Below, piece by piece: positions 1 to 63,316 of a stretch of 64,000 nucleotides of DNA. Under the pieces are notes generated by a model. It was not told the origin of the DNA. It ran no database searches and was given only the letters and a program-made list of their open reading frames with translations. Source of the DNA: Escherichia coli (GTDB taxonomy: Bacteria; Pseudomonadota; Gammaproteobacteria; Enterobacterales; Enterobacteriaceae); the NCBI RefSeq assembly GCF_045037415.1, contig NZ_CP173438.1; one strand, given 5' to 3'. The position numbers and the translations under genes are program-made. Positions within the stretch are counted from its first letter, which is position 1; every line of letters begins with the position of its first letter.

Positions 1-384
1 AAATTCAGTTACTCCTTTACGAACGTTTTCGATATCGCTTTGCGTACCCATGAGTTCAAAGCGGTACAGCCACGGCACGCCGCATTTCCGGGCAATCACA
101 TCTCCGGCGCGGCCATATGCCTCACCAAAGTTGCGATTACCCGAAGCAATAACGCCGCGCAGCAACGCCCGGTTATGCTCGTCGTTTAAAAAGCGAATGA
201 CCTGTCGTGGCACCGCGCCAGCCGTACCGCCGCCGCCGTAAGAGGGCACGATCAGGATGTAAGACTCGTCTACCTGAATCCGTTCCCGCTCATTGAGCGG
301 GATGCGCACCGCGGGCAGCCCTAAACGTTCGATAAAACGCTGCGTATTTTCGGAGCTGCTGGAAAAGTAGACGAGCTGGCTCAT
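1..384 (-). CDS. nrdI: NrdI flavodoxin-like protein of the class Ib ribonucleotide reductase operon; partial, 3' end cut by window edge
   Basis: Reverse-strand translation from ATG at 384 gives [24 protein letters not shown]..., which I recognise as NrdI; its start overlaps the nrdH stop (TCATG at 381-385). Confidence 0.9.
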
Positions 385-13044: not shown

Positions 13045-13407
13045 TGGTGGAGCTGGCGGGAGTTGAACCCGCGTCCGAAATTCCTACATCCTCGGTACTA
13101 CATGCTTAGTCAGTCTTTACATTCGCTTGCCAGCTGCGGACGGACACGCCACTAACAAACTAGCCTGATTAAGTTTTAACGCTTCAACCCCAGGCAGGGC
13201 TTCCACGCGATCTCTTTTGGGTTTGACCTCTCTTGATCCCCGTCCTAAGAGCGGAGGCTAGGGAGAGAGGGCTCTAAGCAGGTTATTAAGCTGCTAAAGC
13301 GTAGTTTTCGTCGTTTGCGACTATTTTTTGCGGCTTTTTACGAGGCCAACCGCCCCTCGGCATGCACCTTGGGTTTCGCAAATCCCGTCGAATCCAGAAT
13401 CAGCCCC
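13045..13407 (-). ncRNA. ssrA: tmRNA (SsrA, 10Sa RNA), 363 nt
   Basis: Minus strand reads GGGGCUGAUUCUGGAUUCGACGGG ... CUCCACCA with the tRNA-like acceptor/T-arm; internal tag reading frame GCAAACGACGAAAACTACGCTTTAGCAGCTTAA (ANDENYALAA-stop) lies near 13283-13315. Confidence 0.97.
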
Positions 13408-31140: not shown

Positions 31141-31162
31141 AGTGTTGCCTTTTTGTTATCAA

Positions 31163-31192
31163 TAAAAAAGGCCCCCCGATTTGGGAGGCCTT
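31163..31192 (-). terminator. pheA attenuator terminator
   Basis: Minus strand reads GGCCUCCC-AAAUC-GGGGGGCC followed by UUUUUUAU, between pheL and the pheA start. Confidence 0.75.
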
Positions 31193-31238
31193 ATTGTTCG
31201 TCTTCGCATTCTGTTTCACACGACGAAACGCCTCCCAT

Positions 31239-31286
31239 TCAGGGGAAGGTAAAAAAGAATGCGAAGAAAAACGGTGTGTGTTTCAT
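31239..31286 (-). CDS. pheL: PheL, phe operon leader peptide (15 aa, 7 Phe codons)
   Basis: Minus strand ATGAAACACACACCGTTTTTCTTCGCATTCTTTTTTACCTTCCCCTGA encodes MKHTPFFFAFFFTFP-stop; K-12 as I recall it has Ile at position 4. Confidence 0.9.
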   Translation of the reverse strand: MKHTPFFFAFFFTFP

Positions 31287-31389
31287 GTTTGTTTCCTTAA
31301 GTGACTTTAGTACAGTACCCGTACTGTTTTCACGCTGTCAACAAAAAACGCGCCCGAAGGCGCGTTGGCGATACACTCAATATAAAGGA

Positions 31390-34581: not shown

Positions 34582-34643
34582 CCTAAAGAATCAAGACGAT
34601 CCGGTACGCGTGATTTTCTTTTCACATTAATCTGGTCAATAAC

Positions 34644-34672
34644 CTTGAATAATTGAGGGATGACCTCATTTA
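34644..34672 (+). promoter_or_regulatory. Sigma-32 heat-shock promoter of clpB
   Basis: CTTGAAT at 34644-34650 and ACCTCATTTA at 34663-34672 resemble the sigma-32 -35 and -10 elements, about 40 bp upstream of clpB. Confidence 0.6.
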
Positions 34673-34710
34673 ATCTCCAGTAGCAACTTTGATCCGTTAT
34701 GGGAGGAGTT

Positions 34711-37284
34711 ATGCGTCTGGATCGTCTTACTAATAAATTCCAGCTTGCTCTTGCCGATGCCCAATCACTTGCACTCGGGCACGACAACCAATTCATCGAA
34801 CCACTTCATTTAATGAGCGCCCTGCTGAATCAGGAAGGGGGTTCGGTTAGTCCTTTATTAACATCCGCTGGCATTAATGCTGGCCAGTTGCGCACAGATA
34901 TCAATCAGGCATTAAATCGTTTACCACAGGTTGAAGGTACTGGTGGTGATGTCCAGCCATCACAGGATCTGGTGCGCGTTCTTAATCTTTGCGACAAGCT
35001 GGCGCAAAAACGTGGTGATAACTTTATCTCGTCAGAACTGTTCGTTCTGGCGGCACTTGAGTCTCGCGGCACGCTGGCCGACATCCTGAAAGCAGCAGGG
35101 GCGACCACCGCCAACATTACTCAAGCGATTGAACAAATGCGTGGAGGTGAAAGCGTGAACGATCAAGGTGCTGAAGACCAACGTCAGGCTTTGAAAAAAT
35201 ATACCATCGACCTTACCGAACGAGCCGAACAAGGCAAACTCGATCCGGTGATTGGTCGTGATGAAGAAATTCGCCGTACCATTCAGGTGCTGCAACGTCG
35301 TACTAAAAATAACCCGGTATTGATTGGTGAACCCGGCGTCGGTAAAACTGCCATCGTTGAAGGTCTGGCGCAGCGTATTATCAACGGCGAAGTGCCCGAA
35401 GGGTTGAAAGGCCGCCGCGTACTGGCGCTGGATATGGGCGCGCTGGTGGCTGGGGCGAAATATCGCGGTGAGTTTGAAGAACGTTTAAAAGGCGTACTTA
35501 ACGATCTTGCTAAACAGGAAGGCAACGTCATCCTGTTTATCGACGAATTACATACCATGGTCGGCGCGGGTAAAGCCGATGGCGCAATGGACGCCGGAAA
35601 CATGCTGAAACCAGCGTTGGCGCGTGGTGAATTGCACTGCGTAGGTGCCACGACGCTTGACGAATATCGCCAGTACATCGAAAAAGATGCTGCGCTGGAA
35701 CGTCGTTTCCAGAAAGTGTTTGTTGCCGAGCCTTCTGTTGAAGATACCATTGCTATTCTGCGAGGCCTGAAAGAACGTTACGAGCTGCACCACCATGTGC
35801 AAATTACTGACCCGGCAATTGTTGCAGCAGCGACGTTGTCTCATCGCTACATTGCTGACCGTCAGCTGCCGGATAAAGCCATCGACCTGATCGATGAAGC
35901 AGCATCCAGCATTCGTATGCAGATTGACTCAAAACCAGAAGAACTCGACCGACTCGATCGCCGTATCATCCAGCTCAAACTGGAACAACAGGCGTTAATG
36001 AAAGAGTCTGATGAAGCCAGTAAAAAACGCCTGGATATGCTCAACGAAGAACTGAGCGACAAAGAACGTCAGTACTCCGAGTTAGAAGAAGAGTGGAAAG
36101 CAGAGAAAGCCTCGCTTTCTGGTACGCAGACCATTAAAGCGGAACTGGAACAGGCGAAAATTGCTATTGAACAGGCTCGCCGTGTGGGTGACCTGGCGCG
36201 GATGTCTGAACTGCAATACGGCAAAATCCCGGAACTGGAAAAGCAACTGGAAGCCGCAACGCAGCTCGAAGGCAAAACTATGCGTCTGTTGCGTAATAAA
36301 GTGACCGATGCCGAAATTGCTGAAGTGCTGGCGCGTTGGACGGGGATTCCGGTTTCTCGCATGATGGAAAGCGAGCGCGAAAAACTGCTGCGTATGGAGC
36401 AAGAACTGCACCATCGCGTTATTGGTCAGAACGAAGCGGTTGATGCGGTATCTAACGCTATTCGTCGTAGCCGTGCGGGGCTGGCGGATCCAAATCGCCC
36501 GATTGGTTCATTCCTGTTCCTCGGCCCAACCGGTGTGGGGAAAACTGAGCTTTGTAAGGCGCTAGCGAACTTTATGTTTGATAGCGACGAGGCGATGGTC
36601 CGTATCGATATGTCCGAGTTTATGGAGAAACACTCGGTGTCTCGTCTGGTTGGTGCGCCTCCGGGATATGTCGGTTATGAAGAAGGTGGCTACCTGACCG
36701 AAGCGGTGCGTCGTCGTCCGTATTCCGTCATTCTGCTGGATGAAGTGGAAAAAGCGCATCCGGATGTCTTCAACATTCTGTTGCAGGTACTGGATGATGG
36801 GCGTCTGACTGACGGGCAGGGGAGAACGGTCGACTTCCGTAATACGGTTGTCATTATGACCTCTAACCTCGGTTCCGATTTGATTCAGGAACGCTTCGGT
36901 GAACTGGATTATGCGCACATGAAAGAGCTGGTGCTCGGTGTGGTTAGCCATAACTTCCGTCCGGAATTCATTAACCGTATCGATGAAGTGGTGGTCTTCC
37001 ATCCGCTGGGTGAACAGCACATTGCGTCGATTGCGCAGATTCAGTTGAAACGTCTGTATAAACGTCTGGAAGAACGTGGTTATGAAATCCACATTTCTGA
37101 CGAGGCGCTGAAACTGCTGAGCGAGAACGGTTACGATCCGGTCTATGGCGCACGTCCTCTGAAACGTGCAATTCAGCAGCAGATTGAAAACCCGCTGGCA
37201 CAGCAAATACTGTCTGGTGAATTGGTTCCGGGTAAAGTGATTCGCCTGGAAGTTAATGAAGACCGGATTGTCGCCGTCCAGTAA
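34711..37284 (+). CDS. clpB: ClpB, AAA+ disaggregase chaperone (Hsp104 family)
   Basis: Start at [39 protein letters not shown]..., 857 aa, with two AAA+ modules (GEPGVGKT and GPTGVGKT Walker A motifs). Confidence 0.97.
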
Positions 37285-37289
37285 ATGAT

Positions 37290-37318
37290 AAAACGAGCCC
37301 TTCGGGGCTCGTTTTTGT
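37290..37318 (+). terminator. clpB rho-independent terminator
   Basis: AAACGAGCCC-TTCG-GGGCTCGTTT hairpin followed by TTGTCT. Confidence 0.7.
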
Positions 37319-37399
37319 CTATAAGTTAGACGGAAAAGACTATATTTAAGATGTTTTGCCTGAAAAATGAGCGAACGATAAAGTTTTTATATTTTTCGC

Positions 37400-37427
37400 T
37401 TGTCAGGCCGGAATAACTCCCTATAAT
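37400..37427 (+). promoter_or_regulatory. rRNA operon promoter P1
   Basis: TTGTCA -35 (37400-37405) and TATAAT -10 (37422-37427) with 16 bp spacing, GC-rich discriminator after the -10, AT-rich UP-like sequence upstream. Confidence 0.8.
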
Positions 37428-37518
37428 GCGCCACCACTGACACGGAACAACGGCAAACACGCCGCCGGGTGAGCGGGGTTCTCCTGAGAATTCCGGCAGA
37501 GAAAGCAAAAATAAATGC

Positions 37519-37546
37519 TTGACTCTGTAGCGGGAAAGCGTATTAT
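37519..37546 (+). promoter_or_regulatory. rRNA operon promoter P2
   Basis: TTGACT -35 (37519-37524) and TATTAT -10 (37541-37546), followed by a GC-rich discriminator. Confidence 0.75.
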
Positions 37547-37727
37547 GCACACCCCGCGCCGCTGAGAAAAAGCGAAGCGGCACTGCTCTTTAACAATTTA
37601 TCAGACAATCTGTGTGGGCACTCGAAGATACGGATTCTTAACGTCGCAAGACGAAAAATGAATACCAAGTCTCAAGAGTGAACACGTAATTCATTACGAA
37701 GTTTAATTCTTTGAGCATCAAACTTTT

Positions 37728-39269
<1,542 letters not shown>

Positions 39270-39354
39270 CCTTAAAGAAGCGTACTTTGCAGTGCTCACA
39301 CAGATTGTCTGATAGAAAGTGAAAAGCAAGGCGTCTTGCGAAGCAGACTGATAC

Positions 39355-39430
39355 GTCCCCTTCGTCTAGAGGCCCAGGACACCGCCCTTTCACGGCGGTA
39401 ACAGGGGTTCGAATCCCCTAGGGGACGCCA
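39355..39430 (+). tRNA. gltW: tRNA-Glu (UUC) in the 16S-23S spacer
   Basis: GTCCCCTTCGTCTAGAGGCCCAGGACACCGCCCTTTCACGGCGGTAACAGGGGTTCGAATCCCCTAGGGGACGCCA, 76 nt with encoded CCA. Confidence 0.95.
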
Positions 39431-39623
39431 CTTGCTGGTTTGTGAGTGAAAGTCACCTGCCTTAATATCTCAAAACTCATCTTCGGGTGATGTTTGAGAT
39501 ATTTGCTCTTTAAAAATCTGGATCAAGCTGAAAATTGAAACACTGAACAACGAGAGTTGTTCGTGAGTCTCTCAAATTTTCGCAACACGATGATGAATCG
39601 CAAGAAACATCTTCGGGTTGTGA

Positions 39624-42527
<2,904 letters not shown>

Positions 42528-42627
42528 ACAACGCCGAAGATGTTTTGGCGGAAGAGACATCGATAAGTAAGCTTGATAGCAGATTAAATCGACAGGTCAT
42601 AACGGGACGTGTTGATAAAACAGAATT

Positions 42628-42747
42628 TGCCTGGCGGCCGTAGCGCGGTGGTCCCACCTGACCCCATGCCGAACTCAGAAGTGAAACGCCGTAGCGCCGA
42701 TGGTAGTGTGGGGTCTCCCCATGCGAGAGTAGGGAACTGCCAGGCAT
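42628..42747 (+). rRNA. rrfG: 5S ribosomal RNA
   Basis: TGCCTGGCGGCCGTAGCGCGGTGGTCCCACCTGACCCCATGCCGAACTCAGAAG...GGGAACTGCCAGGCAT; 120 nt. Confidence 0.97.
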
Positions 42748-59887: not shown

Positions 59888-60843
59888 TGAAGCAACTTTG
59901 GTTTGCCATGTCATTAGTGACAGGTAGCCTGTTATTCTCTGCTAACGCCTTGGCCACTCCCGCGTCCGGGGCGTTATTACAGCAGATGAACCTGGCCAGT
60001 CAGTCACTGAATTACGAGCTGTCATTTATCAGCATCAATAAACAGGGTGTTGAGTCTCTGCGTTATCGACATGCACGCCTCGATAACCGTCCTCTTGCAC
60101 AATTGTTGCAAATGGATGGCCCGCGCCGGGAAGTGGTACAGCGCGGCAATGAAATCAGCTATTTTGAACCGGGACTTGAACCGTTCACGCTTAATGGCGA
60201 TTACATTGTTGATTCTCTGCCATCGCTCATCTATACCGATTTCAAACGCCTTTCTCCTTACTACGACTTTATCTCTGTCGGGCGCACGCGTATTGCTGAT
60301 CGTCTTTGCGAAGTCATTCGTGTGGTTGCCCGAGATGGTACACGCTACAGCTACATCGTGTGGATGGACACCGAATCGAAATTACCGATGCGGGTTGATC
60401 TCCTTGATCGCGATGGTGAAACGCTGGAACAATTTCGCGTGATTGCTTTTAACGTCAATCAGGATATCGGCAGCAGTATGCAGACGCTGGCGAAGGCAAA
60501 TTTGCCGCCGTTGCTTTCTGTTCCTGTTGGTGAAAAAGCTAAATTCAGCTGGACGCCAACCTGGCTGCCACAGGGTTTTAGCGAAGTTTCCAGTAGTCGA
60601 CGTCCGCTACCGACGATGGACAACATGCCTATCGAATCACGTCTCTATTCCGACGGATTATTCAGCTTCTCGGTAAACGTTAACCGCGCTACGCCATCGA
60701 GCACCGATCAGATGTTGCGCACCGGACGCAGAACCGTCAGTACAAGCGTACGTGATAACGCCGAAATCACCATTGTTGGTGAACTGCCGCCGCAAACGGC
60801 GAAACGCATTGCCGAGAATATTAAGTTCGGGACAGCGCAATGA
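59887..60843 (+). CDS. rseB: RseB, periplasmic regulator of sigma-E
   Basis: 318-aa ORF MKQLWFAMSLVTGSLLFSANALATPASGALLQQMNLA... with a signal peptide. Confidence 0.95.
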   Translation: MKQLWFAMSLVTGSLLFSANALATPASGALLQQMNLASQSLNYELSFISINKQGVESLRYRHARLDNRPLAQLLQMDGPRREVVQRGNEISYFEPGLEPFTLNGDYIVDSLPSLIYTDFKRLSPYYDFISVGRTRIADRLCEVIRVVARDGTRYSYIVWMDTESKLPMRVDLLDRDGETLEQFRVIAFNVNQDIGSSMQTLAKANLPPLLSVPVGEKAKFSWTPTWLPQGFSEVSSSRRPLPTMDNMPIESRLYSDGLFSFSVNVNRATPSSTDQMLRTGRRTVSTSVRDNAEITIVGELPPQTAKRIAENIKFGTAQ

Positions 60844-61319
60844 TCAAAGAGTGGGCTACCGTCGTCTCCTGGGAAAACGGGCAGGCGCTGGTCAGTTGTG
60901 ATGTTAAAGCCTCATGCAGCAGCTGCGCTTCACGCGCCGGTTGCGGTAGCCGTGTGTTGAATAAACTTGGCCCGCAAACCACGCATACCATTGTCGTACC
61001 CTGTGATGAGCCGCTAGTGCCGGGGCAAAAAGTGGAATTGGGGATCGCCGAAGGCAGCCTTCTTAGCTCCGCATTACTGGTTTATATGTCGCCGCTGGTG
61101 GGATTATTCCTCATCGCTTCGCTATTTCAGCTACTCTTTGCTTCTGACGTCGCAGCATTATGTGGTGCGATCCTCGGCGGTATTGGTGGGTTCCTGATTG
61201 CGCGCGGCTATTCGCGTAAGTTTGCTGCCCGGGCAGAATGGCAACCGATCATCTTAAGCGTGGCATTGCCGCCTGGCCTTGTGCGATTTGAAACATCTTC
61301 GGAAGACGCGAGCCAGTGA
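60840..61319 (+). CDS. rseC: RseC, membrane protein of the rpoE operon
   Basis: 159-aa ORF MIKEWATVVSWENGQALVSCDVKASCSSCASRAGCGSRVL...; its start overlaps the rseB stop by 4 nt. Confidence 0.9.
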   Translation: MIKEWATVVSWENGQALVSCDVKASCSSCASRAGCGSRVLNKLGPQTTHTIVVPCDEPLVPGQKVELGIAEGSLLSSALLVYMSPLVGLFLIASLFQLLFASDVAALCGAILGGIGGFLIARGYSRKFAARAEWQPIILSVALPPGLVRFETSSEDASQ

Positions 61320-61516
61320 TTTCACTGGCTTTGTTGCATTTTGCATAACAAATGCGAGGACGTTTCCATATACCACAATCCATACGGTATGAACATTTCC
61401 TCGCCTCAATGTTGTAGTGTAGAATGCGGCGTTTCTATTAATACAGACGTTAAGCTCAGAACAGCGACTTCTAAAAGCCTGGTTAACCGGGCATTAAGGC
61501 ACAATAATCATACTTT

Positions 61517-63316
61517 ATGAAGAATATACGTAACTTTTCGATCATAGCTCACATTGACCACGGTAAATCGACGCTGTCTGACCGTATTATCCAGATCTGC
61601 GGTGGCCTGTCTGACCGTGAAATGGAGGCGCAGGTTCTCGATTCCATGGATCTTGAGCGTGAGCGTGGCATTACCATCAAAGCGCAAAGCGTGACGCTGG
61701 ACTACAAAGCGTCTGACGGCGAAACCTATCAGCTTAACTTTATCGACACCCCGGGCCACGTAGACTTCTCCTATGAAGTTTCTCGTTCGCTGGCTGCCTG
61801 TGAAGGTGCATTGCTGGTGGTCGACGCCGGGCAGGGCGTAGAAGCGCAAACCCTGGCAAACTGCTACACCGCCATGGAAATGGATCTCGAAGTGGTGCCG
61901 GTACTGAACAAGATTGACCTGCCGGCAGCCGATCCTGAACGCGTGGCGGAAGAAATTGAAGATATCGTCGGCATCGACGCCACCGACGCGGTGCGCTGTT
62001 CAGCGAAAACCGGCGTTGGCGTGCAAGACGTTCTCGAACGCTTGGTGCGCGACATTCCGCCGCCGGAAGGCGATCCGGAAGGCCCATTGCAGGCGCTGAT
62101 TATCGACTCCTGGTTCGACAACTACCTGGGCGTTGTTTCACTTATCCGTATTAAAAACGGCACCCTGCGTAAGGGCGACAAAGTGAAAGTCATGAGCACC
62201 GAGCAGACCTATAACGCCGATCGTCTGGGCATCTTCACGCCGAAGCAGATTGACCGCACTGAACTGAAATGTGGCGAAGTAGGCTGGCTGGTATGTGCGA
62301 TTAAAGATATCCACGGCGCTCCAGTAGGCGATACCTTAACACTGGCGCGTAATCCGGCAGAAAAGGCGCTGCCTGGCTTTAAGAAAGTCAAACCTCAGGT
62401 ATATGCTGGTCTGTTCCCGGTAAGTTCCGACGACTATGAAGCCTTCCGTGACGCGCTGGGTAAACTCAGCCTGAACGATGCCTCACTGTTCTATGAGCCG
62501 GAAAGCTCCAGCGCGTTGGGCTTTGGTTTCCGCTGCGGCTTCCTTGGCCTGCTGCACATGGAGATCATCCAGGAACGTCTGGAACGTGAATACGATCTGG
62601 ATCTGATCACCACTGCGCCGACTGTAGTGTATGAAGTTGAAACCACGTCAAGAGAAGTTATCTACGTCGACAGCCCATCCAAGCTGCCAGCGGTAAATAA
62701 CATTTACGAACTGCGCGAGCCGATTGCAGAGTGTCACATGCTGCTGCCGCAGGCATATCTCGGCAACGTTATTACGCTGTGCGTAGAAAAACGCGGCGTG
62801 CAGACCAATATGGTTTACCACGGTAATCAGGTGGCGCTGACGTACGAGATCCCGATGGCGGAAGTGGTGCTCGACTTCTTCGATCGCCTGAAATCTACCT
62901 CGCGTGGTTATGCGTCTCTGGATTACAACTTCAAACGCTTCCAGGCGTCCGACATGGTACGTGTAGACGTATTAATCAACGGTGAACGTGTTGATGCATT
63001 GGCGCTGATCACCCACCGTGGTAATTCGCAAAACCGCGGTCGCGAGCTGGTGGAGAAGATGAAAGATCTGATCCCACGCCAGCAGTTTGATATCGCCATT
63101 CAGGCAGCGATTGGTACGCACATCATTGCGCGCTCCACCGTGAAACAGCTGCGTAAAAACGTACTGGCTAAATGTTATGGCGGCGATATCAGCCGTAAGA
63201 AAAAGCTGCTGCAGAAGCAGAAAGAAGGTAAGAAACGCATGAAGCAGATCGGTAACGTCGAGCTGCCGCAGGAAGCGTTCCTCGCCATTCTGCACGTCGG
63301 CAAAGACAACAAATAA
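61517..63316 (+). CDS. lepA: LepA (EF4), translational GTPase
   Basis: 599-aa [60 protein letters not shown]... with GTPase motifs. Confidence 0.97.

Follow-up and report, generated by a model that had tools for sequence, protein, structure and literature searches.

The question raised by this locus is whether a Shine-Dalgarno (SD) sequence and a GTG codon lying within the coding sequence of clpB constitute a second translation start, from which an N-terminally truncated ClpB is produced, and how far such a start is conserved at the DNA level. The whole stretch of Escherichia coli DNA that was analysed, 64,000 nt in length, is called the window in the following. The gene and the region downstream of it contain these features:

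34711..37284, + strand: clpB CDS, 857 codons plus stop, 95.6 kDa
37400-37427 and 37519-37546, + strand: two strong sigma-70-like promoters upstream of rrn
37728-39269, + strand: 16S rRNA gene of the rrn operon
39355-39427, + strand: tRNA gene of the rrn operon, annotated as tRNA-Glu in an identical genome
39508-39616, + strand: StyR-44 match in the rrn spacer
39624-42527, + strand: 23S rRNA gene of the rrn operon
42630-42745, + strand: 5S rRNA gene of the rrn operon

The gene was identified as E. coli clpB. Positions 34600-37400 match several complete E. coli genomes with 100% identity; in these the gene is annotated as clpB (WP_001235102.1), and the region is present in 5425 of 5426 genomes. 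Most sequenced E. coli differ somewhat from the clpB of the window (95-99% DNA identity), and 653 of the 5425 genomes reach at least 99% identity to this strain when the 2.8-kb clpB region is searched. The gene order corresponds to that expected for the E. coli ortholog, rluD-yfiH-clpB-rrn, with rluD and yfiH upstream and the rrn operon, beginning with its 16S rRNA gene, downstream. At the protein level, two stretches match the Pfam family PF02861 (Clp_N, E 3.2e-28 for the ClpB protein), which is the double repeat of the N-terminal domain. They are followed by PF00004 (AAA, residues 203-336), PF17871 (AAA_lid_9, 342-442), PF07724 (AAA_2, 596-760) and PF10431 (ClpB_D2-small, 766-845). Thus, the protein has the two AAA+ modules, the ClpB-type lid and middle region and the D2-small domain of a ClpB/Hsp100 class I disaggregase. 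The rrn operon is complete and lies immediately 3' of clpB (37400-42745, + strand); a simple scan for a terminator between the clpB stop codon and the rrn promoters found none. Elsewhere in the window, Rfam matches correspond to tmRNA (ssrA; 13045-13407, - strand), the Phe leader (pheA attenuator; 31162-31287, - strand) and AsrC, the antisense RNA of rseC (60804-61635, - strand).

Full-length ClpB is initiated from a region in which three features overlap or follow each other closely:

34592..34730, + strand: RyfD (Ysr155_RyfD), Rfam match over the full model length, 125.3 bits versus a gathering score of 42, E 5.9e-27
34644..34672, + strand: putative sigma-32 (heat-shock) type promoter of clpB, a sequence reading, with CTTGAA at 34644-34649, 14 nt, and CCTCATTTA at 34664-34672
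34701..34713, + strand: primary translation start, with the SD GGGAGGAG at 34701-34708 and ATG at 34711-34713, leading to full-length ClpB95

The promoter candidate resembles the sigma-32 consensus, CTTGAA and CCCCATNT. The start of the CDS at 34711 is that of the annotation of identical genomes. Four codons 5' of it, an in-frame ATG at 34699 overlaps the primary SD (MGGV-MRLD), and a mechanical call from this ATG gives an open reading frame of 861 aa versus the annotated 857 aa. The RyfD match extends from the intergenic region between yfiH and clpB, across the putative sigma-32 promoter and the leader of clpB, into the first 20 nt of the CDS. With this extent, RyfD may represent little more than the 5' leader of clpB or a short product of that leader.

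The internal site divides the gene as follows:

34711..35154, + strand: codons 1-148, Clp_N domain and start of the linker, present in the long isoform only (Pfam; PMC6168691)
35143..35150, + strand: internal SD GGAGGTGA, in codons G145 (GGA), G146 (GGT) and E147 (GAA)
35155..35157, + strand: internal in-frame GTG initiator, codon 149, position and frame read here, experimental evidence published
35155..37284, + strand: ClpB80 short-isoform CDS, with NBD1, middle domain, NBD2 and C-terminal small domain

In the preliminary description, GGAGG had been placed at 35143-35147, 7 nt before a GTG at 35155. Direct reading and a script bear this out, GGAGG being followed by the spacer TGAAAGC (35148-35154, 7 nt) and GTG at 35155-35157. 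The frame check that had been proposed was run as well and gave (35155-34711)/3 = 148 exactly, an offset of 444 nt that makes the GTG codon 149 in frame. The complementarity to the 3' end of the 16S rRNA is longer than the GGAGG that was noted first and comprises the 8 nt of GGAGGTGA; their duplex with the anti-SD ACCUCCUUA has an energy of -10.6 kcal/mol, and the spacing to the GTG falls in the range of about 5-10 nt. GGAGG in SD position is found before just two of the in-frame ATG, GTG and TTG codons of clpB, namely the annotated ATG and codon 149. When all codon positions were scanned, the internal SD ranked second among the SD-like sites of the gene. The strongest of these sites, AGGAAGGGGG (about -11.5 kcal/mol; codons 42-44, Glu-Gly-Gly; 34832-34848, + strand), lies 5' of codons 46-48 and has no start codon, Val46 at the right distance being GTT. 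The peptide context EGGSV of this strongest site resembles GGESV at the real internal start.

An initiator GTG is decoded as fMet, and therefore the short isoform begins MNDQGAEDQ and not VNDQ. Of the N-terminus that had been given for it, the downstream residues NDQGAEDQ remain valid and the initial Val has to be replaced. The full protein has a predicted mass of 95.6 kDa, and Met plus residues 150-857 (709 aa) one of 79.9 kDa. Both values match the published names ClpB95 and ClpB80 (93 and 79 kDa), which supports the reading as an internal start. According to Pfam, the AAA-type domains start at approximately residue 180, and codon 149 falls between Clp_N and the first AAA module. This agrees with the published domain structure, in which residues 1-148 form the N-terminal domain and are followed by a short unstructured linker (PMC6168691).

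The production of a shorter, N-terminally truncated ClpB from an internal start, with which the site had been connected, is indeed known (PMC6168691, PMC6941012, Ribo-RET and mutagenesis in Salmonella). An alternative GUG start at codon 149 gives rise to truncated in addition to full-length ClpB in E. coli (PMC6168691, PMC6941012, citing Park et al. 1993). According to the citing papers, dual initiation goes back to Park et al. 1993 (J Biol Chem 268:20170), and, as this work is cited in bioRxiv 10.1101/520783 and PMC6941012, the short product of E. coli was lost when the internal start was mutated. With Ribo-RET, highly specific and well-defined peaks were obtained at the internal starts of infB, mrcB and clpB, all of which had been verified before (bioRxiv 10.1101/520783). 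In Salmonella, the exchange GTG445>CTT (Val149) led exclusively to the long form, and both forms remained after the exchange ATG427>CTT (Met143); the short form was approximately ninefold less abundant than the long one under the conditions used, and the short:long ratio rose under thermal stress and SPI-2-inducing conditions (PMC11005335). Short ClpB has also been called 'a minor product' (PMC8056383). Concerning its function, ClpB without the N-terminal domain shows higher basal ATPase and faster disaggregation of some substrates (PMC8056383), and ClpB95 and ClpB80 form hetero-oligomers with synergy and higher reactivation, as summarized in PMC6941012 from Squires 1991, Park 1993 and Nagy 2010. 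We are practically certain that the site in the window is the established, experimentally verified internal site of translation initiation in E. coli clpB, which is already known, and none of the observations speaks against this.

The proposed mechanism is as follows. The gene carries two SD-led starts in the same frame, and both would be used on a single heat-shock-induced, sigma-32-driven clpB mRNA. 30S subunits would bind either at the primary SD and ATG (34701-34713) or, as we infer, de novo at the internal SD (35143-35150). In the latter case, initiation would take place at the GTG codon 149 (35155), 7 nt 3' of GGAGG, and result in ClpB80. This product begins with Met-Asn-Asp-Gln, has a predicted mass of 79.9 kDa, lacks the substrate-binding N-terminal domain and keeps both AAA+ modules; the internal start removes the N-terminal domain at a domain boundary. 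According to the literature, ClpB80 and ClpB95 assemble into mixed hexamers with higher disaggregation activity. The anatomy of the site, the frame, the SD strength, the gene identity, the synonymous invariance and the co-occurrence of SD and GTG, the last two of which are described below, come from this analysis, and the initiation footprint, the loss of the short form upon mutation of the GTG and the function of the hetero-oligomers are taken from the papers.

Could the internal SD be regulated by RNA structure? A hairpin with an upstream CCACC stretch (35106-35113) would mask the SD and melt at heat-shock temperature, leading to a higher ClpB80:ClpB95 ratio in the manner of an RNA thermometer. 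In the minimum free energy fold of 121 nt, GGAGG is paired with this stretch, and the higher proportion of the short form in thermal stress and SPI-2-inducing conditions (PMC11005335) would fit. However, the 121-nt fold does not exceed shuffled sequences in stability (z = -0.86), the pairing partner of the SD shifts with the folding window, the SD being open in a window of 66 nt, and the predicted SD accessibility is nearly flat between 30 and 46 C. Moreover, any structure here would be opened by ribosomes arriving from the primary start. With such a z-score, window-dependent pairing and almost no temperature response, the masking hairpin was rejected as unsupported, and we consider it very unlikely.

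A more general objection to an internal start is that GGAGG could be a by-product of a conserved Arg-Gly-Gly motif in the linker, Gly being encoded by GGN, and the GTG a mere valine codon, so that the two would form a chance pair without initiation. The frequency of the pattern fits this view. On both strands of the window, GGAGG-N5-9-[A/G/T]TG was found 18 times versus 21.4 +/- 5.1 times in dinucleotide shuffles. The statement of the preliminary description that an SD plus start within a coding sequence is directly readable here must accordingly be toned down, as the motif is not diagnostic per se. Since the bare motif is as frequent as expected by chance, the site is identified by its context and by experiment and not by the pattern.

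The choice of codons points in the other direction. GGAGG is present because GGA was chosen for Gly145, and this codon is rare in clpB, where it accounts for 3 of 63 glycines with G145 among the three, yet it is fixed at this position in five enterobacterial genera. Codons 143-149, i.e. the stretch from Met143 over SD and spacer up to the GTG, do not change at all when E. coli, E. albertii, Citrobacter werkmanii and Enterobacter cloacae are compared, four species between which 457 of the 857 clpB codons (53%) vary synonymously. Ranked by synonymous variability among them, the 11-codon window 140-150 falls at the 2.4th percentile. The primary start has the longest invariant run in clpB, codons 1-13; there are four invariant runs of at least seven codons, so the seven-codon run at 143-149 is weakly unusual. 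Taken together, these comparisons suggest a modest signal of synonymous constraint on SD and start beyond the needs of the protein. Within E. coli, the 51 nt around the internal site are identical in 5377 of 5422 genomes (99.2%), and a variant that was sampled has Gly153 GGT>GGA as its sole change.

The second-longest invariant run in E. coli, E. albertii, Citrobacter and Enterobacter is located elsewhere and comprises the eight codons 705-712 (36823-36846, + strand). The third strongest SD-like site of clpB (-8.3 kcal/mol) falls in the same place, and the in-frame codon there is GTC. The invariance of codons 705-712 is probably caused by protein constraint in NBD2.

Data on the chance pair also come from a survey of 80 clpB loci from Gamma- and Betaproteobacteria, one genome per species, with 66-100% protein identity; the search peptide NDQGAEDQ is located just 3' of codon 149 and may slightly bias the sample. 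In line with a chance pair, Arg-Gly-Gly and Val149 are nearly universal as protein in these loci, and codon 149 is GTG in 37, GTC in 28, GTT in 10, GTA in 2 and ATT in 3 of them. The 37 GTG codons compare with 36.7 expected from the valine codon usage of each gene. Universal conservation of GTG149, being no commoner than codon usage predicts, was rejected.

Against a chance pair, the SD strength and the GTG co-occur across species. GGA at Gly145 is about twofold enriched in the survey (13 observed versus 6.3 expected). In the set of 77 species, from which three close E. coli relatives were left out, GTG149 is more frequent with GGA145 than without it (8 of 10 versus 26 of 67; Fisher p=0.019, kinship ignored). 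Where the SD is strong (at most -8 kcal/mol), GTG149 is found in 13 of 19 species versus 8.2 expected, kinship again ignored, and where it is weak, in 21 of 58 versus 27.2 expected, a weak SD being compatible with initiation. The SD energies of GTG and non-GTG species differ accordingly (Mann-Whitney p=0.004 for the 77 species, kinship ignored). Initiation was demonstrated by published mutagenesis (PMC11005335) and Ribo-RET (bioRxiv 10.1101/520783), and for E. coli and Salmonella the chance pair is refuted by the loss of the short form upon GTG>CTT. For the site in the window we give it a negligible probability, while it may apply to species that have GTC or GTT at position 149.

The internal start at GTG149 also has to be distinguished from a start at Met143 (ATG 35137). 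ATG is a better initiator than GTG, and an automatic caller of translation initiation sites assigned the Ribo-RET signal of Salmonella to this codon (PMC11005335). However, in the window the internal SD lies 3' of ATG143, and no SD-like sequence precedes it. Furthermore, of the two Salmonella exchanges described above, the one at Met143 left both forms and only the one at Val149 removed the short form (PMC11005335). Being without an SD here and excluded experimentally in Salmonella, a start at Met143 was rejected and has hardly any probability left. It is just as improbable that the short form stems from a transcript of a clpB-internal promoter or from cleavage of ClpB95 by a protease within the linker, although internal clpB transcripts 5' of the putative internal start were reported for Leptospira (PMC6941012) and an unstructured linker could be protease-sensitive (PMC6168691), since a scan limited to the sigma-70 type detected no such promoter in the first 444 nt of clpB, between 34711 and 35155, an internal transcript would use the same SD and GTG anyway, and a short form that depends on the very GTG codon is unexpected for proteolysis.

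With GTG149 as the start in E. coli, the survey also gives a picture of its distribution. SD and GTG are present together in the Escherichia-Salmonella-Citrobacter-Enterobacter group, in a member of the Pasteurellaceae, in one Alcanivorax, in one Xanthomonas and in several unclassified metagenome-assembled genomes. They are absent at least from the sampled Pseudomonas, Stutzerimonas, Photorhabdus and Legionella, from one of two Vibrio and from two of three Shewanella. GTT, GTC or GTA at position 149 without a convincing start in the linker was found in Photorhabdus, one Vibrio, one Shewanella, Legionella, Stutzerimonas xanthomarina and the sampled Pseudomonas (loci L005, L012, L013, L024, L052, L060, L062, L063 and L069). 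More generally, a search for an alternative SD-led in-frame start in the linker of species without GTG149 mostly revealed none with a decent SD.

A cautious reading of these data is that SD and GTG may be retained jointly in some lineages and missing from others. Going further, one could propose that the internal start of clpB is not generally conserved, with an SD-GTG pair that is patchy and kept or lost as a pair (a strong SD accompanies GTG at the homologous codon in only approximately 13 of 77 species), and that species having GTC, GTT, GTA or ATT and no alternative start would probably make full-length ClpB only. We put slightly less than even weight on this proposal. Val149 is conserved in the protein without conservation of the GTG, and thus arguments from protein alignments for a conserved internal site (PMC6168691) overstate the case.

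The site in the window is of interest mainly as a positive control, being a textbook internal start that was correctly recognized from the sequence alone. The two forms of ClpB co-assemble, together they disaggregate better than either form alone, and their ratio shifts under stress. Last but not least, a conserved Val149 is not the same as a conserved start codon, and claims on the conservation of internal starts need a check at the DNA level in each species. The patchy distribution of the SD-GTG pair at the DNA level is the only, and mildly, new element, and the rest has already been published.

In comparison with known systems, the site corresponds in all respects to the dual initiation of E. 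coli clpB (ClpB95/ClpB80, 93/79 kDa): locus, GTG at codon 149 and SD are the same, and nothing differs. The clpB pair of Salmonella Typhimurium (PMC11005335), whose start was demonstrated by changing GTG to CTT on the chromosome, shares the 15-mer GGAGGTGAAAGC-GTG and its peptide context with the window. A Salmonella mutagenesis oligonucleotide reads, when reverse-complemented, ATGCGCGGAGGTGAAAGC-GTG-AACGATCAAGGG around the start codon (PMC11005335 supplement). The Salmonella flanks differ from the window synonymously, namely at Q142 (CAA>CAG), R144 (CGT>CGC) and G153 (GGT>GGG). Within E. coli, infB (IF2 alpha/beta) and mrcB (PBP1b) resemble clpB in having an SD-led in-frame internal start that results in two N-terminal proteoforms and in showing Ribo-RET peaks. 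They encode other proteins with other domains, whereas in clpB initiation at the internal site takes away a complete globular domain, at a domain boundary. In other phyla, truncated ClpB arises, as in E. coli, from a start near the linker between the N-terminal domain and NBD1 in M. tuberculosis (GTG149), Synechococcus and Leptospira, the latter with an internal ATG (PMC6168691, PMC6941012, PMC8056383). The Leptospira clpB differs from that of E. coli in both start codon and SD, using AGGGAA plus ATG (PMC6941012).
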